Of a stretch of 8,791 nucleotides of DNA, positions 1-8,791 are shown piece by piece (position 1 is the stretch's first letter; every line of letters begins with the position of its first letter). The notes beneath the pieces were generated by a model. That model did no database searches. It was given only the letters and a program-made list of their open reading frames with translations, and was not told the DNA's origin. The DNA is from a virus (taxonomy: Duplodnaviria > Heunggongvirae > Uroviricota > Caudoviricetes), in the IMG/VR virus record IMGVR_UViG_2740892488_000005, positions 1 to 8,791 of that record. One strand, given 5' to 3'. The translations under genes and the position numbers were made by a program.

Positions 1-46
1 ACTTGTGATAAATCCGAATGGTTTGGTCGCCGTTCGGGGTAACTGG

Positions 47-68
47 CCCGCCTTGTGCGGGTCTTTTT
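47..68 (+). terminator. Putative rho-independent terminator ending an upstream off-window transcript
   Basis: Hairpin CCCGC (47-51) / loop CTTGT / GCGGG (57-61) followed directly by TCTTTTT (62-68). A TAA at 40-42 could be the stop of a gene entering from the left. Confidence 0.45.
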
Positions 69-127
69 GCTATCTAAAGGGTGCCGGTTACGTTTCCGGC
101 GTCGTTATGTTTCCATTACGACCGTAC

Positions 128-200
128 AGGGCTGGTCAGGCCCGGGCTGGTCTTTCCTGTTTTGAGCTGGTCAGGCTCATGGTCAACGCTGGTCAGGCGT
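128..200 (-). repeat. Tandem array of three stem-loops with conserved 7-nt loop (TGGTCAG on plus, CUGACCA if transcribed leftward) and covarying 4-5 bp stems
   Basis: Loops at 133-139, 168-174 and 190-196. Stems GGGC/GCCC (129-132/140-143), TGAGC/GCTCA (163-167/175-179), ACGC/GCGT (186-189/197-200). Same element occurs inverted at 2191-2205 and 4615-4631. Confidence 0.6.
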
Positions 201-291
201 GGTACTTCCTCCGGTCTTTCCCTGGTGTCACGCTGCGGGTTTGGCCTCTCCTGTTGGGGACTCAGGCACAGCGATAAAACCTGGCTGTGTG

Positions 292-319
292 AAAAAATGG
301 CCCATCGTGCGGACTGGGC
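292..319 (-). terminator. Possible intrinsic terminator on the minus strand
   Basis: On the minus strand GCCCA / 10-nt loop / TGGGC (plus 300-304 pairs with 315-319), then C and a T6 run (plus A-run 292-297). Stem is short, so tentative. Confidence 0.3.
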
Positions 320-764
320 AAAGACTAAACACAGCAAATTGATGATGGGCGCCGGAATCGAACCGGGTAACGGGCAGGGAGTTCCCGTTAAACACCTGTT
401 CACCACAACCGGGAGCGCACTCCGCCATTTCAAAATTTAACGACAAAGCTCAAAGTTGAGTCGATGAAGTGCGCTCTCGTGTTGTAGCCAGGACTCTTCC
501 CTGGTGGTCACACCGTATCGCCTTGATGGTGAATCAATCGCTCATACCTGGCTGTGGCTTGCACATTCCGGCTACCTGCTATGGAGACAACGCGTTAAGG
601 CTCCGCTTCCATCCAGACCGCTTCGACACATGTGCCATATGCCGGTGAAGTCTTTCCCTCTGTCACCGTGTTGGCGCCGACGCGCAAAATTTGGTGCCGT
701 CTTTCCGGCTGTCAGAACGTGTTTCTGAACAACTGCCGCTGGGTAAGCGTTGTTGATGAAAGTG

Positions 765-820
765 ACTTTACAATTTGTATTTGTAATGGTCAATGTGTTT
801 TTAAAAAATAATTTGTAGTG
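765..820. promoter_or_regulatory. OL-like operator cluster downstream of the repressor gene
   Basis: AT-rich block with TTTGTA at 774-779, 780-785 and 812-817; palindrome TACAA-T-TTGTA at 769-779; 9-mer ATTTGTAAT (779-787) also present at 1372-1380 in the repressor/cro intergenic region. Confidence 0.4.
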
Positions 821-911
821 AGGGGCAAAAAAATATTCACTGTGTAAAGGTGTTTTTGTGTTAGGGGAAAGTTGCATGCCAGCAGCGGCTGGCCTGGAAA
901 TTTGAACTGAA

Positions 912-1304
912 CTATTTTGTCTGGTTTTTGGCTTCAAGTAGTTCTTTTAGCAGTAGATCGAAGTGCTCTCTTTTTTCTTTTAGCTCATTGATTAATTTAT
1001 TTTTTTCGCTCTCAGGCAGTCCTCTGAATAGTTGCAGTAGAGCCTGTTCTTGCGGGGTTAGTTCTTGATTGTAATTACCCGGGTGTAGTGTGGATTCATC
1101 CAAATATTCCCCTTCATTCATGAAGAAAAAATGAACAGGGTATCCGGTCACTTTTGCTAGCTTGTCTAATTTATCTTTTCTTGGAGTTACCCCATTACAC
1201 CATGCCTGAACTGATTGAGCCGTAACCCCAATATGGCGAGCTAACTCAGATTGAGACCAGCCTAAGTCTTTTAGAATCCGTTGTAGTCGGCTAGCAAAAG
1301 CCAT
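912..1304 (-). CDS. Prophage CI-like repressor, XRE-family HTH, 130 aa, with no LexA-like S24 peptidase domain
   Basis: ORF 912..1304 (-). N-terminal HTH signature (LGWSQSELARHIGVTAQSVQAW) and helical C-terminus; divergent from a cro-like gene across an operator-rich intergenic region. No Shine-Dalgarno within about 15 nt upstream of the ATG, so possibly a short-leader or leaderless mRNA. Confidence 0.8.
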   Translation of the reverse strand: MAFASRLQRILKDLGWSQSELARHIGVTAQSVQAWCNGVTPRKDKLDKLAKVTGYPVHFFFMNEGEYLDESTLHPGNYNQELTPQEQALLQLFRGLPESEKNKLINELKEKREHFDLLLKELLEAKNQTK

Positions 1305-1424
1305 GTTTTTCGTTTTTTGTGTTCATACCGTAAGGATACAAGGTTTAATTGTAGGGAGCATTGCAAATATAATTTGTAATTACAGTTATTGTTTGTAATG
1401 ATGACGCGGACACAAGGAGTCCAT
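1305..1424. promoter_or_regulatory. Divergent promoter/operator region between repressor and cro-like gene (OR-like)
   Basis: AT-rich 120 bp intergenic region with perfect 10-bp palindrome TGTAATTACA (1375-1384), further TTTGTA copies at 1373-1378 and 1392-1397, a TTGCAA -35-like hexamer at 1361-1366, and AAGGAG SD at 1414-1419. Confidence 0.55.
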
Positions 1425-1655
1425 ATGGATAAACAACTGCAAGACAAAATTCTTTCCGTAATGAGTCAATCCGAGTTAGGGCGGCGATTAGGGAAAAAAC
1501 CACAAACGGTAAGCCTCTGGTTCAAAGGACGGGTTCCCGGTGAAGAGGTTTTGCGCACATCTGAAGCTCTTGAATGGCGCGTGACCCCTCATGATCTTAG
1601 ACCGGATCTTTACCCAAACCCAGATGACAGCTTGCCTAAAACGGAAGCAGCTTAA
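1425..1655 (+). CDS. Cro/YdaS-like HTH regulator, 76 aa
   Basis: ATG at 1425 preceded by AAGGAG (1414-1419). The track ORF starts at 1389 but that ATG lies inside the operator repeats with no SD. HTH (SQSELGRRLGKKPQTVSLWF) and the C-terminal HDLRPDLY motif typical of Cro/YdaS-type prophage proteins. Confidence 0.75.
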   Translation: MDKQLQDKILSVMSQSELGRRLGKKPQTVSLWFKGRVPGEEVLRTSEALEWRVTPHDLRPDLYPNPDDSLPKTEAA

Positions 1656-1713
1656 CTGTTGGTGAGCCCCAAATCTGATTAAGCGTAATCAATTTTTAGC
1701 GACAGGAGACGCT

Positions 1714-2190
1714 ATGGAAAACCAAGAGGAATTACAAAAAGAGATTTTGACCTGGGCGGCAAGGGCAGGGCAGGAACTCGTCACGATTGAAATCTGCCGG
1801 GCCTGGTTCAGTCAGGGACGCAATGATGAGTTGAGACTACATGAATTTGAGGACGCGGACGGCAACGTGGACTGGAGAGCCATCAACAACAATCGGCAGA
1901 AAATCTTTCGCTGGTTACGTGGCGAGACAACGGCGGCGCGCCGAAAAACTCAGGTGCTGGCCAGTGTGATGAAAGCCGTGCTACCCGCAGAACGGCGGGC
2001 ACGTCTGGAGTCGCCGGGCGATCCCGTTTTGCTGGCAACGCTGGCGGCAAAAGAAGGGGTGGAAGCGATTAACGCTGTACATCTCCACTTCGCGCCAGAG
2101 TTAACTATTCAGGAAATTGACGAAGCAATAGCGGCGCTGGTAGCGACGCGAGGAGCAGTGATACGCACTGCGCAAGACCACCATGCATGA
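1714..2190 (+). CDS. YdaT-like (CII-analog) prophage regulator, 158 aa
   Basis: ORF 1714..2190 with AGGAG at 1703-1707. Contains the motif NNRQKIFRWLRGETTAARRK, which I recognise from Rac-prophage YdaT-family proteins; sits immediately after the Cro/YdaS-like gene as in Rac-type immunity regions. Confidence 0.65.
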   Translation: MENQEELQKEILTWAARAGQELVTIEICRAWFSQGRNDELRLHEFEDADGNVDWRAINNNRQKIFRWLRGETTAARRKTQVLASVMKAVLPAERRARLESPGDPVLLATLAAKEGVEAINAVHLHFAPELTIQEIDEAIAALVATRGAVIRTAQDHHA

Positions 2191-2229
2191 GCGCCTGACC
2201 AGCGTTTAACTTATACCGAGGAAAGACCG
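2190..2229 (+). promoter_or_regulatory. Stem-loop plus conserved SD leader cassette (copy A)
   Basis: Directly after the TGA at 2188-2190: stem GCGC/GCGT (2191-2194/2202-2205) with loop CTGACCA (2195-2201), 9-nt spacer, then ACCGAGGAAAGACC (2215-2228) and ATG at 2230. Same architecture at 4615-4651. Confidence 0.55.
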
Positions 2230-2388
2230 ATGTTAAGACATATTGACCGCATTACCTGGCGTAACGGCTGGCACCTGAATGGACGCCCGGCACATGTTGC
2301 AGAGATCCGCCCCATATTCGATGGCCGCGTCGCAGCTGCACGTTCTGTATGGGAAAAGTACGAAGAAGAAAAAAGCGAAACTGCGTGA
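2230..2388 (+). CDS. Hypothetical small protein, 52 aa (below the ORF-track size cutoff)
   Basis: ATG 2230 to TGA 2386-2388, translating MLRHIDRITWRNGWHLNGRPAHVAEIRPIFDGRVAARSVWEKYEEEKSETA. Supported by the strong SD (GAGGA) and by the identical 14-nt leader that precedes the 136-aa gene at 4652. Confidence 0.45.
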   Translation: MLRHIDRITWRNGWHLNGRPAHVAEIRPIFDGRVAAARSVWEKYEEEKSETA

Positions 2389-2451
2389 GCAAAATCTCTC
2401 TGGCGCTGCCTATGAGGCTGGCTGTCGCGTTCTCTCAGAGGCTTTGGGCAT

Positions 2452-3042
2452 ATGAACATCCTCCCGTTACTTGATAGACCCATAGCCTTCCAGAGAAGTT
2501 TTATCCGTCTTGAAATGGGCGTGACTGCCGCATTGTTTCTGTCGCAGTTGACGTACTGGACAAACAGAACAACTGACGACGGCTGGGTATATAAAACCCA
2601 GGATGAGTGGGAAGAGGAAACAGGGCTTTCACGATACGAGCAGGAGGGCGCGCGCAAAAAACTACGTGGTCTCGGCGTCTTGCTGGAACGTAAACAGGGC
2701 TTGCCTGCCAGGCTGTACTACAAAATCGATAATGATGTGTTGTGCCAGCTACTTACGTCCGCATACAAGGATGCGGAAAAACCACATACAGGTGAGGGGA
2801 AAACCACCAGGCCTGTACGTGGAAAACCAACAAACATTCTTACAGAGAATACTACAGAGATTATTACTGATGGTGAATCGGCTGACGCCGACACCCAACA
2901 ACCTGCCGACCAGAGAATAAATTATCAGGTGATACTCGATACCTATCACGAGATTTTGCCAGAGATGCCACCAGTGAAAATCCTCACTGACGGCAGAAAA
3001 AAAACACCTTCGCACTTTCTGGAAAAAATTCAATTTCAATGA
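2452..3042 (+). CDS. Phage replication initiation protein (replisome-organiser type, winged-helix N-terminal domain); reading frame probably disrupted near its 3' end
   Basis: ORF 2452..3042 (196 aa); N-terminal region resembles phage O-like/DnaD-like initiator winged-helix domains and lies directly upstream of a DnaB-family helicase. An adjacent frame stays open from 2978 to 3208 and ends overlapping the helicase start, suggesting a +1 frame change at A8 (2997-3004) or A6 (3023-3028). Confidence 0.6.
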   Translation: MNILPLLDRPIAFQRSFIRLEMGVTAALFLSQLTYWTNRTTDDGWVYKTQDEWEEETGLSRYEQEGARKKLRGLGVLLERKQGLPARLYYKIDNDVLCQLLTSAYKDAEKPHTGEGKTTRPVRGKPTNILTENTTEIITDGESADADTQQPADQRINYQVILDTYHEILPEMPPVKILTDGRKKTPSHFLEKIQFQ

Positions 3043-3197
3043 GTCCCGTTGGCGGGCCTATCTGGAATTTATCGGTGGCAATTGTCGCTGGATGCTGGAG
3101 GACAGGCCAAATGGCAGGGGAGGATTCTGGCGGCGTAAAAATCTTGATTATCTGATTACCGAACGCTGCTATGTTTCGGTCAAGGAAGAACGCGCAA

Positions 3198-4613
3198 ATG
3201 ATAAATAACGCGATTGCACTGTACAGCGTTGACGCAGAACAGGCTGTTCTGGGCTGTCTGATGCTGAATACCGACCACGACAGAACCAATGCGGTATTTG
3301 CGTTACTGAAACCGGAAACGTTTTATATCAATGCGCATCAGGTTATCTACCGGGAGATCAAAGGATTATTTCAAGCTGATAAACCAACTGACCTGATAAC
3401 ACTGACCGAACTGATGGAATCGAAGGGGCTGTATGAGCGCGTGGGGGGATTCGCATACCTGGCTGAAATGAGTAAGGCGGCGATTCCGGCCTCAATGGTC
3501 AACTACGCGAAAATTGTACGTGAAAAAGCCATTCTTCGTTATGCCGTGGAAAAGTTGAATTCTTGTCTGGAGATTATGATCCAGCCTGCAGATATGACTG
3601 CTACTGACAGGATCACCGCCGTTCAGCAAGTGATTGGGCAGGTGGCCGAACATTCCCGTACCGGGCATAAGGGCGGTTTGCGTCCGGCAAGTGAAGTCGT
3701 CGATGACTGGATAGATGACCTTGAGCGCCGTTTCAATGATCCAGCACATGCAGCCGGACTAACGCTCGGAATCGAAAGCCTTGATCGCTTAATGGCACCA
3801 AAGCAGGCGTTAAGAGGTTCATTGGTCGTTATTGGTGCCCGGCCAAAAATGGGCAAGACAGCCGCGTTTAATAAAATTGCGGTGCATTTTGCTCTGAATC
3901 ATCGTTTGCCGACGCTGGTATTTAGCCTGGAAATGACTGACAGAAGTCTCATTGAACGCATGGTTGCGCAGGAAGCAAAGGTCAATTCGGAGATTTTTTA
4001 TCTTGGCCCTAACGATGAATCTGAATTGAGTCTCGCAATAGCAAAGGCGGGGGAGATTGCCGAATCCAACATGATGATTGACAGCACGGCAGGTGTAACC
4101 CTTGCGCATATTGTCGCTGAATGTCGAAAAGTTAAACGGATGCGTGGCTCGGTTGGCCTGGTGGCAATTGACTATTTGACGCTGATGAAGACCGAATCGG
4201 CAGAGCGTAGGGATATTGCGTATGGCGATATCACAACCGGTTTGAAGAACCTGGCAAAAGAGCTGGATTGTGTTGTGGTCCTGCTGACGCAACTCAACCG
4301 AAAGCTTGAAGAACGTGCCGATAAGCGGCCTAACCCGAGCGACAGTAAAGATACCGGGCAGATCGAACAAGATTGCGATGTCTGGATTGGCCTCTATCGT
4401 GATGCTGTTTATAACGAAAATGCCGACCCAAATCTCATGGAAATGTTGCTACGTCTGAACCGCGAAGGACCATCGGGAACAGCCTATGCCCTGATGAAAA
4501 ATGGCTCAGTTATTGATATCAGCGATGAGGAGGTTTATCGCCTTACCAACGACCGCTCAGAAAAAAATAAACGTTATTCCCGTAGCGATAATTCTCGCAC
4601 AAATGAATTTTAA
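3198..4613 (+). CDS. DnaB-family replicative DNA helicase (phage-encoded, P22 gp12-like)
   Basis: Track ORF 3171..4613; preferred start is ATG 3198 with AAGGAAG SD at 3183-3189. DnaB N-terminal motif (SVDAEQAVLGCLML), Walker A (GARPKMGKTA), SLEM motif, and LTQLNRKLEERADKRPNPSDSKDTGQIEQDCDVWIGLYRD matching the DnaB H3/H4 region. Confidence 0.9.
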   Translation: MINNAIALYSVDAEQAVLGCLMLNTDHDRTNAVFALLKPETFYINAHQVIYREIKGLFQADKPTDLITLTELMESKGLYERVGGFAYLAEMSKAAIPASMVNYAKIVREKAILRYAVEKLNSCLEIMIQPADMTATDRITAVQQVIGQVAEHSRTGHKGGLRPASEVVDDWIDDLERRFNDPAHAAGLTLGIESLDRLMAPKQALRGSLVVIGARPKMGKTAAFNKIAVHFALNHRLPTLVFSLEMTDRSLIERMVAQEAKVNSEIFYLGPNDESELSLAIAKAGEIAESNMMIDSTAGVTLAHIVAECRKVKRMRGSVGLVAIDYLTLMKTESAERRDIAYGDITTGLKNLAKELDCVVVLLTQLNRKLEERADKRPNPSDSKDTGQIEQDCDVWIGLYRDAVYNENADPNLMEMLLRLNREGPSGTAYALMKNGSVIDISDEEVYRLTNDRSEKNKRYSRSDNSRTNEF

Positions 4614-4614
4614 C

Positions 4615-4651
4615 CACGCCTGACCAGCGTGAAATAACCGAGGAAAGACCA
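4615..4651 (+). promoter_or_regulatory. Stem-loop plus conserved SD leader cassette (copy B)
   Basis: Directly after the helicase TAA (4611-4613): stem CACGC/GCGTG (4615-4619/4627-4631) with loop CTGACCA (4620-4626), 5-nt spacer, then ACCGAGGAAAGACC (4637-4650) and ATG at 4652. Confidence 0.55.
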
Positions 4652-5062
4652 ATGACCACCACTCCAGGCAAATTAGAGTACCCGTCGGACAAAGGACACA
4701 TAGACGACGGTAAAAACTATCTCGACGTCATTTTGTGGAATATGAACGTCGGGCCACGTGCGCGCACTCGCGCGGTTTTTGTGCCAAGACCTAAAGCAGG
4801 CAATTTTTCAACCCCTGCTAAGCCTGCCCGTCAGGCATCCGTAGCCGCAGCGCCAGCAGTGAAACGTAAGGGCAAAACGCACACCGGGATCGCGATTCGC
4901 AGAAATGGTGAGCGGCAAGTGAAACTCCACGAAACAGCGACAACCTGGTGTGCCTCACCGCATGAAACTTACGACAAGATAACCGGGCAGCGCATTGGCG
5001 CGCCTGGTCGCTGCCGCCTGCTGCTGAGTTCCATCACTCCGATAGCAAAGAAAGGGGCGTGA
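4652..5062 (+). CDS. Hypothetical protein, 136 aa
   Basis: ORF 4652..5062 with the conserved SD leader; enterobacterial-style codon usage (CTG, GCG, CCG rich); no competing ORF on either strand. No family recognised. Confidence 0.6.
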   Translation: MTTTPGKLEYPSDKGHIDDGKNYLDVILWNMNVGPRARTRAVFVPRPKAGNFSTPAKPARQASVAAAPAVKRKGKTHTGIAIRRNGERQVKLHETATTWCASPHETYDKITGQRIGAPGRCRLLLSSITPIAKKGA

Positions 5063-5063
5063 T

Positions 5064-5300
5064 ATGGCCGGGCAATCAGATTACCTGCCGCCCGGCTTAC
5101 CACACAACCGCGCCAAATGGCCCCAGGAATACCAGCTTAAAGAGCACTACGACATGCGAGCGGCGGCGCTGATCCGCCAACTCTTTGAGAAACGTATTCC
5201 GAGGGGAAGCGTGATTGAGCAAATCGGAATGACGCCAGATACGTACCGGGAATTTTTCAGAGAGCGTCTGAACTACTGGAGAGGGGTGATGGAACAATGA
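5064..5300 (+). CDS. Hypothetical protein, 78 aa
   Basis: ORF 5064..5300, starting 1 nt after the previous stop; purine-rich AAAGGGG upstream. Its stop overlaps the next start in an ATGA arrangement. Confidence 0.55.
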   Translation: MAGQSDYLPPGLPHNRAKWPQEYQLKEHYDMRAAALIRQLFEKRIPRGSVIEQIGMTPDTYREFFRERLNYWRGVMEQ

Positions 5301-5608
5301 AATACAAACGGTGGGTGCGTGCGGAAGTCGTAATCATCAAACAATGTGCGGGCAGCATGACAGTTGAACGTATAGGGCAGCTTATTGGCAGAACCGGTGC
5401 AGCGGTACGCACAAAAGCGCGCGAGCTGAAAATCTGTATGTATCTGCGGGGTAATTATCACCAGTCAGTGAAATACCTCCAGGAAGATATCGAGCTGGCA
5501 AGGGAATTACATCAGTCGGGTATTAATCGCCAGGATATCGCAGAAAAACTCGAAATGCCGATCGGAGCGGTGAATCAGTTTGTTTATTTTGAGCGGAGAA
5601 TTTCATGA
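5297..5608 (+). CDS. Hypothetical DNA-binding protein with two HTH-like segments, 103 aa
   Basis: ORF 5297..5608; ATGA overlap with the upstream gene. Two helix-turn-helix-like stretches (MTVERIGQLIGRTGAAVRTKAREL and INRQDIAEKLEMPIGAVNQFV); the HTH assignment is inferred from sequence pattern only. Confidence 0.5.
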   Translation: MKYKRWVRAEVVIIKQCAGSMTVERIGQLIGRTGAAVRTKARELKICMYLRGNYHQSVKYLQEDIELARELHQSGINRQDIAEKLEMPIGAVNQFVYFERRIS

Positions 5609-5829
5609 AAGAACTTTTTCTTGCATTTGTGCCCCGGTTTATTAATGACCAGATCGCACTGACTGATAATGGTGAACAATATGAAATTGCCTGCAGCATG
5701 GTGGATGTGAATCCTGGCGAACGGTATGACGCGATGTGTGACCTGAAAATATTTACCTGGCTGGGTTGGGCTATTCCGTGTGGAGAACCAACCAATATTC
5801 GTCCGTTTGAGAGCAGGGAGGCTGTATGA
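5605..5829 (+). CDS. Hypothetical protein, 74 aa
   Basis: ORF 5605..5829; ATGA overlap with the upstream stop, part of the coupled small-gene chain. Confidence 0.5.
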   Translation: MKELFLAFVPRFINDQIALTDNGEQYEIACSMVDVNPGERYDAMCDLKIFTWLGWAIPCGEPTNIRPFESREAV

Positions 5830-5942
5830 GTGAATTGAAAATACGTCGCAAGGCAATAGCACGCGTTAAAAATCTATTACCAGTGCCTGTCAAATATCGT
5901 TTTTGTGGTGGGAATGTACGGATTGGTACGGATGTATGGTGA
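5826..5942 (+). CDS. Possible small ORF, 38 aa
   Basis: ATG 5826 overlapping the upstream stop (ATGA), stop TGA at 5940-5942, translating MSELKIRRKAIARVKNLLPVPVKYRFCGGNVRIGTDVW. Only positional evidence. Confidence 0.3.
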   Translation: MSELKIRRKAIARVKNLLPVPVKYRFCGGNVRIGTDVW

Positions 5943-6016
5943 TTGCGGAGTGACGTAAAACGAATCGTTGTGGGTGTAATATCGTCAATATCATTGGTTT
6001 CCCGGAGGGAAAGGAC

Positions 6017-6238
6017 ATGTTTGGCGATAAACTGGAGTTACCACGGAACGGGCGGATAGTGCTCTATATTTCAGATTACAAAGTAACCCGGGCTGAGGTG
6101 TTGGAACCGGAAAAACATCTGGTCACGTTACCGGACATTATTGAGTTGTATAAGCGGGTCGGATATGTGGACTTGCATCGCGATGATGTTCCCGTTGAGT
6201 GTATGGAATGTGAACACCGGAGGTTTGAAGTTGATTGA
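6017..6238 (+). CDS. Hypothetical protein, 73 aa
   Basis: ORF 6017..6238 preceded by GGAGGGAAAGG; followed about 90 nt downstream by a terminator-like hairpin plus T7. Confidence 0.5.
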   Translation: MFGDKLELPRNGRIVLYISDYKVTRAEVLEPEKHLVTLPDIIELYKRVGYVDLHRDDVPVECMECEHRRFEVD

Positions 6239-6329
6239 ATTGACTTAGAAAAAGTCCGGGGCTATAGTTTCCGCGCAGCCGCAAAATCGGTTGCCGGGAT
6301 TGGCGTCCCGGATATCTAAGTGACGCATA

Positions 6330-6349
6330 GCCGCGTTAGCGGTTTTTTT
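6330..6349 (+). terminator. Putative intrinsic terminator closing the small-gene operon
   Basis: GCCGC (6330-6334) / loop GTTA / GCGG (6339-6342) followed by T7 (6343-6349). Short stem, moderate confidence. Confidence 0.45.
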
Positions 6350-6448
6350 ATGTGTTAGGCACGGCCACATTCGCATTATGGTGGGCTGTGTGGGGGCTTC
6401 TGTGGAAGCGCCGGGTTCACTTAGCCGGTTACGCCAACCCTGCACAGC

Positions 6449-6481
6449 TCACCACCAGATGATTGGCGTCGCTGGTGGTGA
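6449..6481. promoter_or_regulatory. Perfect 10-bp inverted repeat immediately upstream of the antirepressor start
   Basis: TCACCACCAG (6449-6458), 13-nt spacer ATGATTGGCGTCG, CTGGTGGTGA (6472-6481); right arm contains the Chi octamer GCTGGTGG (6471-6478). Antirepressor SD AAGTGAGG at 6495-6502 and ATG at 6511. Confidence 0.4.
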
Positions 6482-6510
6482 TGAAAAAAACACTAAGTGA
6501 GGCCACTGCG

Positions 6511-7300
6511 ATGACAGTCCAAATATCTGCGGAATCCCTTTCTCCGCTACATCATAACCAACTTCCCGTCATCACTACTGAATTGCTTGCCAGTTTGTAT
6601 GGCACGGAAGTAAATGGTATCCAGCAAAACTTCAAGCGCAACATCGCCAGATTTGTCGTAGGAAAGCATTTTTTTTAAGCTGGAAGGTAATGAATTACGC
6701 GACTTCAAAAACAGACTGACAGATAGTCAGTCAGTTGCTAAACATACCCGATCCCTCATTCTCTGGACAGAACGCGGCGCAGCTCGCCATGCCAAAATGC
6801 TGGAAACAGAACAGGCCTGGGAAGTTTTCGAAAAGCTGGAAGATTGTTATTTTAGCCAGCGTCCAGAGAGGCGGAGTACAACTACCGATGACCGTACTCC
6901 CTTGCGTGATGCCGTTAATATACTGGTCGGCAAGAAAGGCATGATGTATCCCGATGCCTACACCATGATTCATCAACGCTTCGCCGTCTCTCACATAGAA
7001 CAACTGTCACAGACGCAAATGTTAGAGGCGATTGAATACATCCACTGCCTGCTACTCGATGAAAATCACCCAACCATTCCAGATTTTTCTTTTATCACCA
7101 CTATCAAAAATGGAAAAGTGACCGGGATGCGCCATGTTGCCAAAGGCGAACATCTGATGACCTTTGACGCTTTCAAAGAGATCGCTGAGCGGGCAGGGTA
7201 TCTGGTGATCCACAGCGACAATCTGCGAAGTATGACACTGGATAAATTGATGGTAATGGGGAAAAAGTCGGCTATATCCGTTGCTAATTCAGCATTTTGA
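6511..7300 (+). pseudogene. Phage antirepressor-type regulatory protein, interrupted by a frameshift in a T8 run
   Basis: N-terminal part in frame 1 (6511-6678, ends GKHFF-stop) and C-terminal part in frame 2 (track ORF 6797..7300, open from 6677). Removing one T from T8 (6669-6676) gives a continuous ~262-aa protein with the conserved stretch GKHFFKLEGNELRDFKN...SLILWTERGAARHAKMLETEQAWEVFEKLEDCYF, which I recognise as antirepressor-like. Confidence 0.65.
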
Positions 7301-7427
7301 CAGGTTGTTTGGGGCGGAAATACTCTATTTGCGCTTAAAAAGGTATTTGACCACGACCAGCACGAGACCGAATACCTCTGTCAAAGTACCGCCCATATAA
7401 AACAGTTACATATGCACTTGATGACTA

Positions 7428-7459
7428 AGCTGGCACCAGGTTAACACCTGGCGCCAGCT
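7428..7459. other. Strong near-perfect hairpin between convergent genes (14-bp stem, one mismatch, 4-nt loop)
   Basis: AGCTGGCACCAGGT (7428-7441) / TAAC / ACCTGGCGCCAGCT (7446-7459). No U-tract on either strand, so not a canonical intrinsic terminator. Confidence 0.4.
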
Positions 7460-7589
7460 TGAAGGAGACTTCAGTTATTGGTTTCTGAGGAAAGCGATTC
7501 TTGAAAGGGTCATTTGCGTCTGGCAGTCGACCATTTTCTTGACTTCAGCATCTGTTCCCTGCATTGAAACTTTACCGCACATAGCATCC

Positions 7590-8294
7590 TTAGTTTTGAT
7601 CCACTGACGCTGAGAAGGCAGCAAATCTTTTTTTCTTCGCCGGGGTTAACTTGCTCCAGACGGTACTCAAATCAGAGTCGGCATTCGCAAATGCCATTCG
7701 GGACTGATCAAGGTTGTCAGCTTTTTGCGGCTGAAGTTGTGCCTGTCTCTCTATTTGCTTCTCCGCCTCATACTTAGCCTGTTCTTGCGCCCTGAGTTGC
7801 ACCTGTTGTTCCGCTTCAATTTGACTCTGTTGGGCATCCTTAGCCTGCTGGATTTTCTGCTGCTCAACGATCGGGGTGATAATGGAAAGCGATGTCAGTA
7901 AAGCGGCGCCCACTGATATCGGATTATCAGTAGAGGTTTTTACAAAAACGTTTTTCTGATCGTCGGTCGCCTGCACGGTGTAGGTGATACGTTTTGAAAA
8001 GGCGTTTGCGTTGTTCTCCAAAAACAGGCTTTCCATTTGCTTATCGAGATTACGATTAAAATTCTTTCTGTAAGCATCTGAAAGCTGGACGTACTCGTTC
8101 GCAGATAGAGTCATCGTCACGGTCCCTTCACAAGTTTTCATTGTGCTGCCCGTGTCACTTGATGTTGTGGAGATCTCAGAGATGGCTAGTTTGATCTTGT
8201 CCAGTGTGCTTCGTTTGGTCTGATTAGTGACATCAGGGTATTTATCGACCTGTTCAGAGAGTCCTTCATAAGCAGATTTTTTTAATAAATCCAT
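7590..8294 (-). CDS. Hypothetical protein, 234 aa: N-terminal domain, central hydrophobic helix, Gln/Glu-rich coiled-coil C-terminal region
   Basis: ORF 7590..8294 (-). Hydrophobic stretch ISVGAALLTSLSIITPIV followed by a heptad-like Q/E/A-rich segment. Frame stays open upstream of the ATG until a stop at plus 8358-8360, inside the IS end, so the native 5' end or promoter may have been displaced by the IS insertion. Confidence 0.55.
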   Translation of the reverse strand: MDLLKKSAYEGLSEQVDKYPDVTNQTKRSTLDKIKLAISEISTTSSDTGSTMKTCEGTVTMTLSANEYVQLSDAYRKNFNRNLDKQMESLFLENNANAFSKRITYTVQATDDQKNVFVKTSTDNPISVGAALLTSLSIITPIVEQQKIQQAKDAQQSQIEAEQQVQLRAQEQAKYEAEKQIERQAQLQPQKADNLDQSRMAFANADSDLSTVWSKLTPAKKKRFAAFSASVDQN

Positions 8295-8420
8295 GAGAGC
8301 TGACTGGGTTATTTCCGAAGAACAACCGATCTCATCTTTTTTGTTATCTGAAGTGGTTTACTGAATTTGGCCACCTGAACAGAGGTGATATGCTCACCTC
8401 AGAACAACACAGGTGCCATA

Positions 8421-8721
8421 ATGAAAAAAAGAAATTTCAGCGCAGAGTTTAAACGCGAATCCGCTCAACTGGTCGTTGACCAGAATTACACCGTGGCAGA
8501 TGCAGCCAGCGCTATGGATGTCGGCCTTTCCACAATGACGCGATGGGTGAAACAATTACGTGATGAGCGGCAGGGAAAACACCAAAAGCCTCCCCTATTA
8601 CCCCGGAACAAATTGAAATCCGTGAGCTCAGGAAAAAGCTACAACGTATTGAAATGGAAAATGAAATATTAAAAAGGCTACCGCGCTCTTGATGTCAGAC
8701 TCCCTGAACAGTTCTCGATAA
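8421..8721 (+). pseudogene. IS3-family transposase OrfA (HTH plus leucine-zipper regulator), apparently frameshifted twice
   Basis: [53 protein letters not shown] in frame 3 (from 8421); expected continuation [27 protein letters not shown] in frame 2 from 8597; expected C-terminus [14 protein letters not shown] in frame 1 ending at TAA 8719-8721. Frame changes coincide with an A4 run (8576-8579) and the A5G slippery-site region (8671-8676). Confidence 0.65.
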
Positions 8722-8791
8722 TCGGGAAACTCAGGGCGCGTTATCCTGTGGCCACTCTCTGCCATGTGTTCGGGGTCCATCGCAGCAGCTA
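8676..8791 (+). CDS. IS3-family transposase OrfB, N-terminal part (3' end beyond the window)
   Basis: Frame 3 open from 8676 to the window end with a typical OrfB N-terminus ([16 protein letters not shown]). Confidence 0.6.

Follow-up and report, generated by a model that had tools for sequence, protein, structure and literature searches.

The window analysed here, a stretch of 8791 nucleotides that makes up positions 1 to 8,791 of the viral record IMGVR_UViG_2740892488_000005, ends in the left part of the insertion sequence ISEc52 (IS3 family, a relative of IS911). This part comprises 443 of the 1250 bp of the element (8349–8791, plus strand) and is identical to two full-length copies save for two gaps of one base, each of them in a run of As. 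We infer that both losses are most likely homopolymer miscalls made by sequencing or assembly in an otherwise canonical ISEc52, and not features of the DNA. The real element would then be expected to carry five As at the first site and an intact A6G heptamer at the second, and to be functional.

A sequence-only reading of the same stretch had left two branches, namely that the element is probably inactive or that the sequence has errors. Errors are the branch favoured here, because all eight differences private to the window (8/8) lie in homopolymers, none of them is a substitution, and the orthologous change from A6 to A5 occurs only in error-rich assemblies. The inactive branch is less supported. 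Further support for miscalls comes from the IS part itself, which has no substitution in 443 bp and gives canonical OrfA and OrfAB when two bases are restored.

Identity of the element and its insertion into lprI

The ISEc52 copies of strains AHB10 and S14 match the window at 443 of 445 aligned positions (99.55%), with no substitutions. These two reference copies come from unrelated strains and are 100% identical to each other across 1250 bp. A megablast search with 8340–8791 returned thousands of matching places in complete Escherichia coli genomes, and the NCBI label of matching copies is ‘IS3-like element ISEc52 family transposase’. The element continues past the window end at 8791, and its right two-thirds lie beyond. 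It is an ordinary copy of an already known IS, and more precisely ISEc52 than IS911. A feature that marks membership, orfB placed in −1 via an A AAA AAG heptamer, is found in the reference copies and is missing from the window as written; as this lack is most likely a sequencing artefact, the copy is assigned to ISEc52 by descent.

Identity common to all ISEc52 copies begins at 8349, and the match to the prophage stops at 8348. The left terminal inverted repeat (IRL; 8349–8384, plus strand) was placed by this start of identity, its length of 36 bp being an assumption by analogy with IS911. It starts with TGAAGTGG and reads TGAAGTGGTTTACTGAATTTGGCCACC from 8349. Termini of the IS3 family have the form TG...CA, and the IRL of the window starts with 5′-TG as in the family. 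The reference ISEc52 ends are the inverted repeats TGAAGTGGTTTACTGAATTTGGCCACC and TGAAGTGGTCAACAAAAACTGGCCACC, the right repeat (IRR) matching IRL in these copies.

Other ISEc52 copies are flanked by target duplications of 3 bp (ATC/ATC, GGG/GGG and CAG/CAG), and the left flank of the window copy ends in ATC. The seven bases to the left of IRL are TGTTATC both in lprI (window 8342–8348) and in AHB10 (contig L001, 1501–1507), where ISEc52 is inserted between ymdA and csgC, unrelated to the lprI site. ATC is also the target duplication of a third ISEc52 copy, that of AR_451. These recurring TGTTATC/ATC flanks may reflect a target preference of ISEc52.

The interrupted gene is a prophage gene of the LprI family (7475–8348, minus strand). 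Its 5′ end has been removed by the IS at 8348/8349, and the intact gene is annotated in S14 (L002). Near its 3′ end, lprI also carries a frameshift in a window-private T7 run ending at 7628, which is T6 elsewhere. The lprI::ISEc52 junction is absent from 5426 complete E. coli genomes, and the insertion therefore looks recent. Exact scans for the junction gave no matches in viral, genome and metagenome collections and matches to the IS only in the phage collection, and the LprI product specific to the window had no exact match among the proteins searched.

Reading frames and the two shortened A-runs

As written, OrfA is distributed over all three frames of the plus strand. Its amino terminus (MKKRNF...DERQGK) is in the phase of the ATG at 8421 (frame 3), its middle in the 8420 phase (frame 2) and its tail in the 8422 phase (frame 1), with the stop at 8719–8721; orfB starts in the 8421 phase (frame 3). 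The first break, where frame 3 gives way to frame 2, is at an A4 run (8576–8579, plus strand), which alignments show to be A5 in ISEc52 and CAAAA in IS911. The middle of OrfA, with the leucine-zipper region TPKASP...ENEILK (8580–8675, plus strand), is intact and consists of the same residues as the reference OrfA, shifted into frame 2. At 8669–8677 (plus strand) stands the degraded programmed −1 frameshift site TTAAAAAGG with A5, where ISEc52 and IS911 carry TTAAAAAAGG (A AAA AAG). The 5′ part of orfB (8676–8791, plus strand) is in frame 3, and its translation agrees with the reconstructed OrfAB from residue 87 on. Compared with ISEc52, the window changes are GGGAAAAAC to GGGAAAAC (A5 to A4) and TTAAAAAAGG to TTAAAAAGG (A6 to A5), and nothing else.

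Three-frame translation and the list of runs bear out the earlier description of these frames: at GGGAAAAC (8573–8580) OrfA leaves frame 3 for frame 2, the slippery site is TTAAAAAGG with five As at 8671–8675, and OrfB is in +1, not −1, relative to the OrfA segment that enters this site. The sequence-only reading was also right that the element as written can make neither OrfA nor OrfAB in the normal way, the frames being broken as it described.

The ORF present as written has 83 amino acids (8421–8672, plus strand). By translation it consists of residues 1–53 of the OrfA helix–turn–helix (HTH) region and an out-of-frame tail, and it terminates at a TAA (8670–8672) within the former slippery site. 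The Pfam domain HTH_Tnp_1 spans residues 1–57 of this product (E = 2.4e-9). If both contractions of the A-runs were real and had arisen by replication slippage, the window would hold a dead ISEc52 copy: only the 83-residue HTH fragment would be made, without the OrfA leucine zipper and without OrfAB, and the element could transpose only with help in trans from intact copies. The broken frames fit this explanation, and we consider it unlikely in view of the pattern in the rest of the window.

When the two As are added back, OrfA has 100 residues, A AAA AAG is in the right phase, and OrfAB has 382 residues. The reference ISEc52 of AHB10 and S14 has the same organization, with an OrfA of 100 residues, A AAA AAG at nucleotide 324 and a 382-residue OrfAB produced by a −1 slip. 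The reconstructed OrfAB contains the domains HTH_Tnp_1 and rve (E = 1.6e-31 for rve), and its score with the NCBIfam IS3 transposase model is 380.6 bits, the cutoff being 160. The DDE (rve) domain of orfB is located outside the window and is seen in the reference OrfAB. As in IS911, the frame-0 product of an intact element is OrfA, with HTH and leucine zipper; when ribosomes slip by −1 on A AAA AAG, OrfA is joined to the DDE domain that OrfB contributes, and the OrfAB transposase (HTH-LZ-DDE) results. OrfAB of IS911 and the IS3 family carries out copy-out-paste-in transposition via a circular intermediate and generates target duplications of 3 bp.

Even intact ISEc52 copies are flagged by NCBI as ‘frameshifted’ pseudogenes (AHB10, L001 1580–2749; S14, L002 2573–3742). 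The copies so flagged have A6G, an OrfA of 100 residues and an OrfAB of 382 residues by −1 slip, so that in this family the flag does not set true damage apart from programmed frameshifting. An Rfam scan of the IS part detected no frameshift-element family.

It could also be supposed that the run lengths are real and that expression is rescued, either by transcriptional slippage which re-adds an A or by a +1 ribosomal shift at TTAAAAAGG. As written, orfB is indeed in +1 from the incoming frame, and some IS3-family elements, for example IS1447 (PMC6211511), use transcriptional slippage and not ribosomal −1 frameshifting. Such a rescue would, however, need two separate corrections in each mRNA or translation event. 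Runs of four and five As, the lengths found here, lie below the length at which polymerase slips to an appreciable degree. The variant is also vanishingly rare, as nearly all of the thousands of IS matches in complete E. coli genomes have the longer run at the first site, and nothing points to selection in favour of the arrangement. We regard a rescue by recoding as highly improbable.

Homopolymer differences in the window and in other assemblies

Positions 1–8348 represent a lambdoid prophage region with genes for a cI-like repressor, YdaS/YdaT, a DnaB-type helicase, ORF6N and LprI. Compared with strain S14 (L002), this part has no substitutions and seven single-base indels, all of them in homopolymers. 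Six of the seven (64, 351, 1313, 2369, 6669 and 7628) are private to the window when nine further independent assemblies are considered. Three genes that are intact elsewhere are split by private indels: a gene for 74 residues (2369), the ORF6N gene (6669) and lprI (7628). With the IS included, the private differences number eight, all of them one-base changes in homopolymer length, and there are no substitutions in 8.8 kb. Mutation spectra of E. coli contain several times more substitutions than indels, and this holds even for mismatch-repair mutants. A set of eight indels without any substitution is thus not natural divergence and has the signature of homopolymer-prone sequencing. Both this bias and the three other genes broken in the same way argue against real decay of the ISEc52 copy. 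Assemblies from 155 index blocks share the break at the T-run of the ORF6N gene, and those that were read all have fragmented gene calls.

One length difference in the prophage part is of another kind. An A8 run at 2990–2997, which is A7 in other strains, cuts a replication-region protein of 251 residues to 196; its gene is located directly upstream of that for the DnaB-type helicase. The A8 is not private, being common to 11 contigs from independent samples, some of them otherwise 100% identical to the window, and may represent genuine polymorphism in run length. Directly upstream of the ORF6N (antirepressor-like) gene, at 6262–6459 on the plus strand, three Rfam families reach their gathering scores: isrK (6275–6349), C4 antisense RNA (6374–6459) and the a1/b1 target of C4 (6262–6314). 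Taken together, these matches look like a P1/P7-type C4 immunity module within the lambdoid prophage.

Some observations count against miscalls. Among runs of at least four bases, the IS has 2 discrepant ones out of 9 and the prophage part 5 out of 146 (Poisson P about 0.04); this somewhat higher rate per run in the IS would fit real decay. The changes also have opposite signs, with two deletions in the IS and five insertions and one deletion in the prophage part. A4 is moreover present in two assemblies with clean-looking neighbouring genes, those of strain 1442 (L017) and GCA_015472165, and A5 in an ISEc52 copy of the complete genome AR_451. Since A4 (strain 1442) and A5 (AR_451) occur in deposited complete genomes, and A4 in clean-looking assemblies, there is a small probability that one run or both are truly shorter.

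Of 1361 complete E. coli records, one matches A4 at the first site exactly, in the ISEc52 copy within yjhR of strain 1442. The yjhR::ISEc52 junction itself occurs in 390 complete genomes, among them ST131 strains, Nissle 1917 and ATCC 25922. The 39 other yjhR copies listed from these 390 genomes have 452 bases against the 451-base A4 query (99.8%), consistent with A5. In the gene-position index, the exact 83-residue product recurs on no more than two contigs besides the window. With one record in 1361 and two further contigs, A4 does not behave as a propagating allele. A defective A4 lineage spreading over three sites (lprI, yjhR and the tdc region) was accordingly rejected as the main reading, given this single record and the A5-consistent orthologues in yjhR.

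The yjhR copy (L017, 5804–7052; L003, 9929–11176) has no matching 3-bp duplication, with CGA on its left and CTT on its right, which points to an old insertion that was later rearranged or trimmed by a deletion. A4 at the first site is confined to this copy both in strain 1442 and in the assembly ERZ11449013.

A5 at the second site, in a context of 61 bp, has an exact match in 439 complete-genome records. Among the 40 matches listed, all but one are single-copy features annotated as ‘IS3 family transposase’, the exception being the ISEc52 copy of AR_451. The A5-context records may mostly be the same relic next to capU/virK, of which one example, in E. coli O104:H4, was inspected.

Both deletions occur together in ERZ11449013 (L003), in its ISEc52 copy inserted in yjhR. 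Against the orthologous locus of strain 1442, this assembly shows 14 homopolymer deletions and no substitutions in 12 kb, one of the deletions being at the slippery site; the genes around its copy are shattered, and those of strain 1442 are intact. In a second assembly, L024, the 8.3-kb prophage part shows 28 indels, and the slippery site is A5 in a copy that is A6 in strain S14. By comparison with the orthologous copies of clean genomes (L017, L002), which have A6, the change from A6 to A5 in these two assemblies is demonstrably an artefact.

Real decay also meets a difficulty in the age of the insertion. A recent insertion would need two later independent inactivating slippages, or else the transposition of a copy that was already doubly defective. 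Transposases of the IS911 type act preferentially in cis. That the window holds a recently inserted, doubly frameshifted ISEc52 which was necessarily mobilised in trans is, in our view, quite improbable. If it were true, the 83-residue fragment, an OrfA reduced to its HTH, could bind IS ends and damp the transposition of intact copies in the cell, and contraction of the A-run in the slippery site would be a recurrent natural off-switch for elements of the IS911 type.

Miscalls remain the preferred explanation. The assembly of the window has about one homopolymer-length error per kilobase, and frameshifts, pseudogenes and ‘broken recoding sites’ in it need read support before they are given a biological reading, above all at A/T runs. 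Were both changes real, this would still be a routine case of IS decay.

Relation to a decayed relic and to IS911

Decay of an IS911-like element does occur. The relic beside capU/virK in E. coli O104:H4 (L016, 2249–2966) has the same A5 slippery site, TTAAAAAGG, as the window. It carries substitutions in IRL and in the body, has a shortened A-run at the start codon, lacks the C-terminal part and is annotated as incomplete. This truly decayed relic, probably fixed with its A5 in hundreds of genomes, counts against miscalls and in favour of a real contraction. It differs from the window, however, by its substitutions in the inverted repeat and body, which speaks against real decay of the window copy. 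A derivation of the window copy from the A5 relic was rejected, as none of the substitutions of the relic are shared. The relic is a real instance of the decay that had been suspected for the window.

IS911 has been described with an OrfA of 100 residues, an OrfAB made by programmed −1 frameshifting, inverted repeats of 36 bp and an HTH/leucine-zipper layout (PMC2909936). Its OrfA and OrfAB sizes equal those reconstructed for ISEc52. The IS911 of Shigella phage Sf6 (NC_005344) has 93.3% DNA identity to the window over the aligned 443 bp. For the roughly one third of the element that lies in the window, ISEc52 is thus the closer match (99.55% versus 93.3%), and ISEc52 is also the name that NCBI gives to the matching copies. 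The organization is shared: the inverted repeat of the Sf6 element starts with TGAAGTGG, OrfA has 100 residues, A AAA AAG is at the same place and OrfB is in −1. The IS911 OrfA assumed in the sequence-only reading, and the A6G heptamer expected with orfB in −1, are correct for both this IS911 and intact ISEc52. Alignment to the references, which had been proposed as a check, showed longer runs in intact frames; the same run lengths in an intact frame, which would have meant that the assumed OrfA was wrong, were not seen.

At the first site IS911 has GGGCAAAAC where ISEc52 has GGGAAAAAC, about 7% of the bases differing between the two elements, and the slippery site of the Sf6 copy is TTAAAAAAGG, as in ISEc52. 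A further difference is located a few bases upstream of the slippery site, where IS911 has GGAG and both ISEc52 and the window have GGAA (window 8648–8668). We take GGAG to be the Shine–Dalgarno-like stimulator described for IS911 frameshifting; if so, the stimulator is weakened in ISEc52 compared with IS911.
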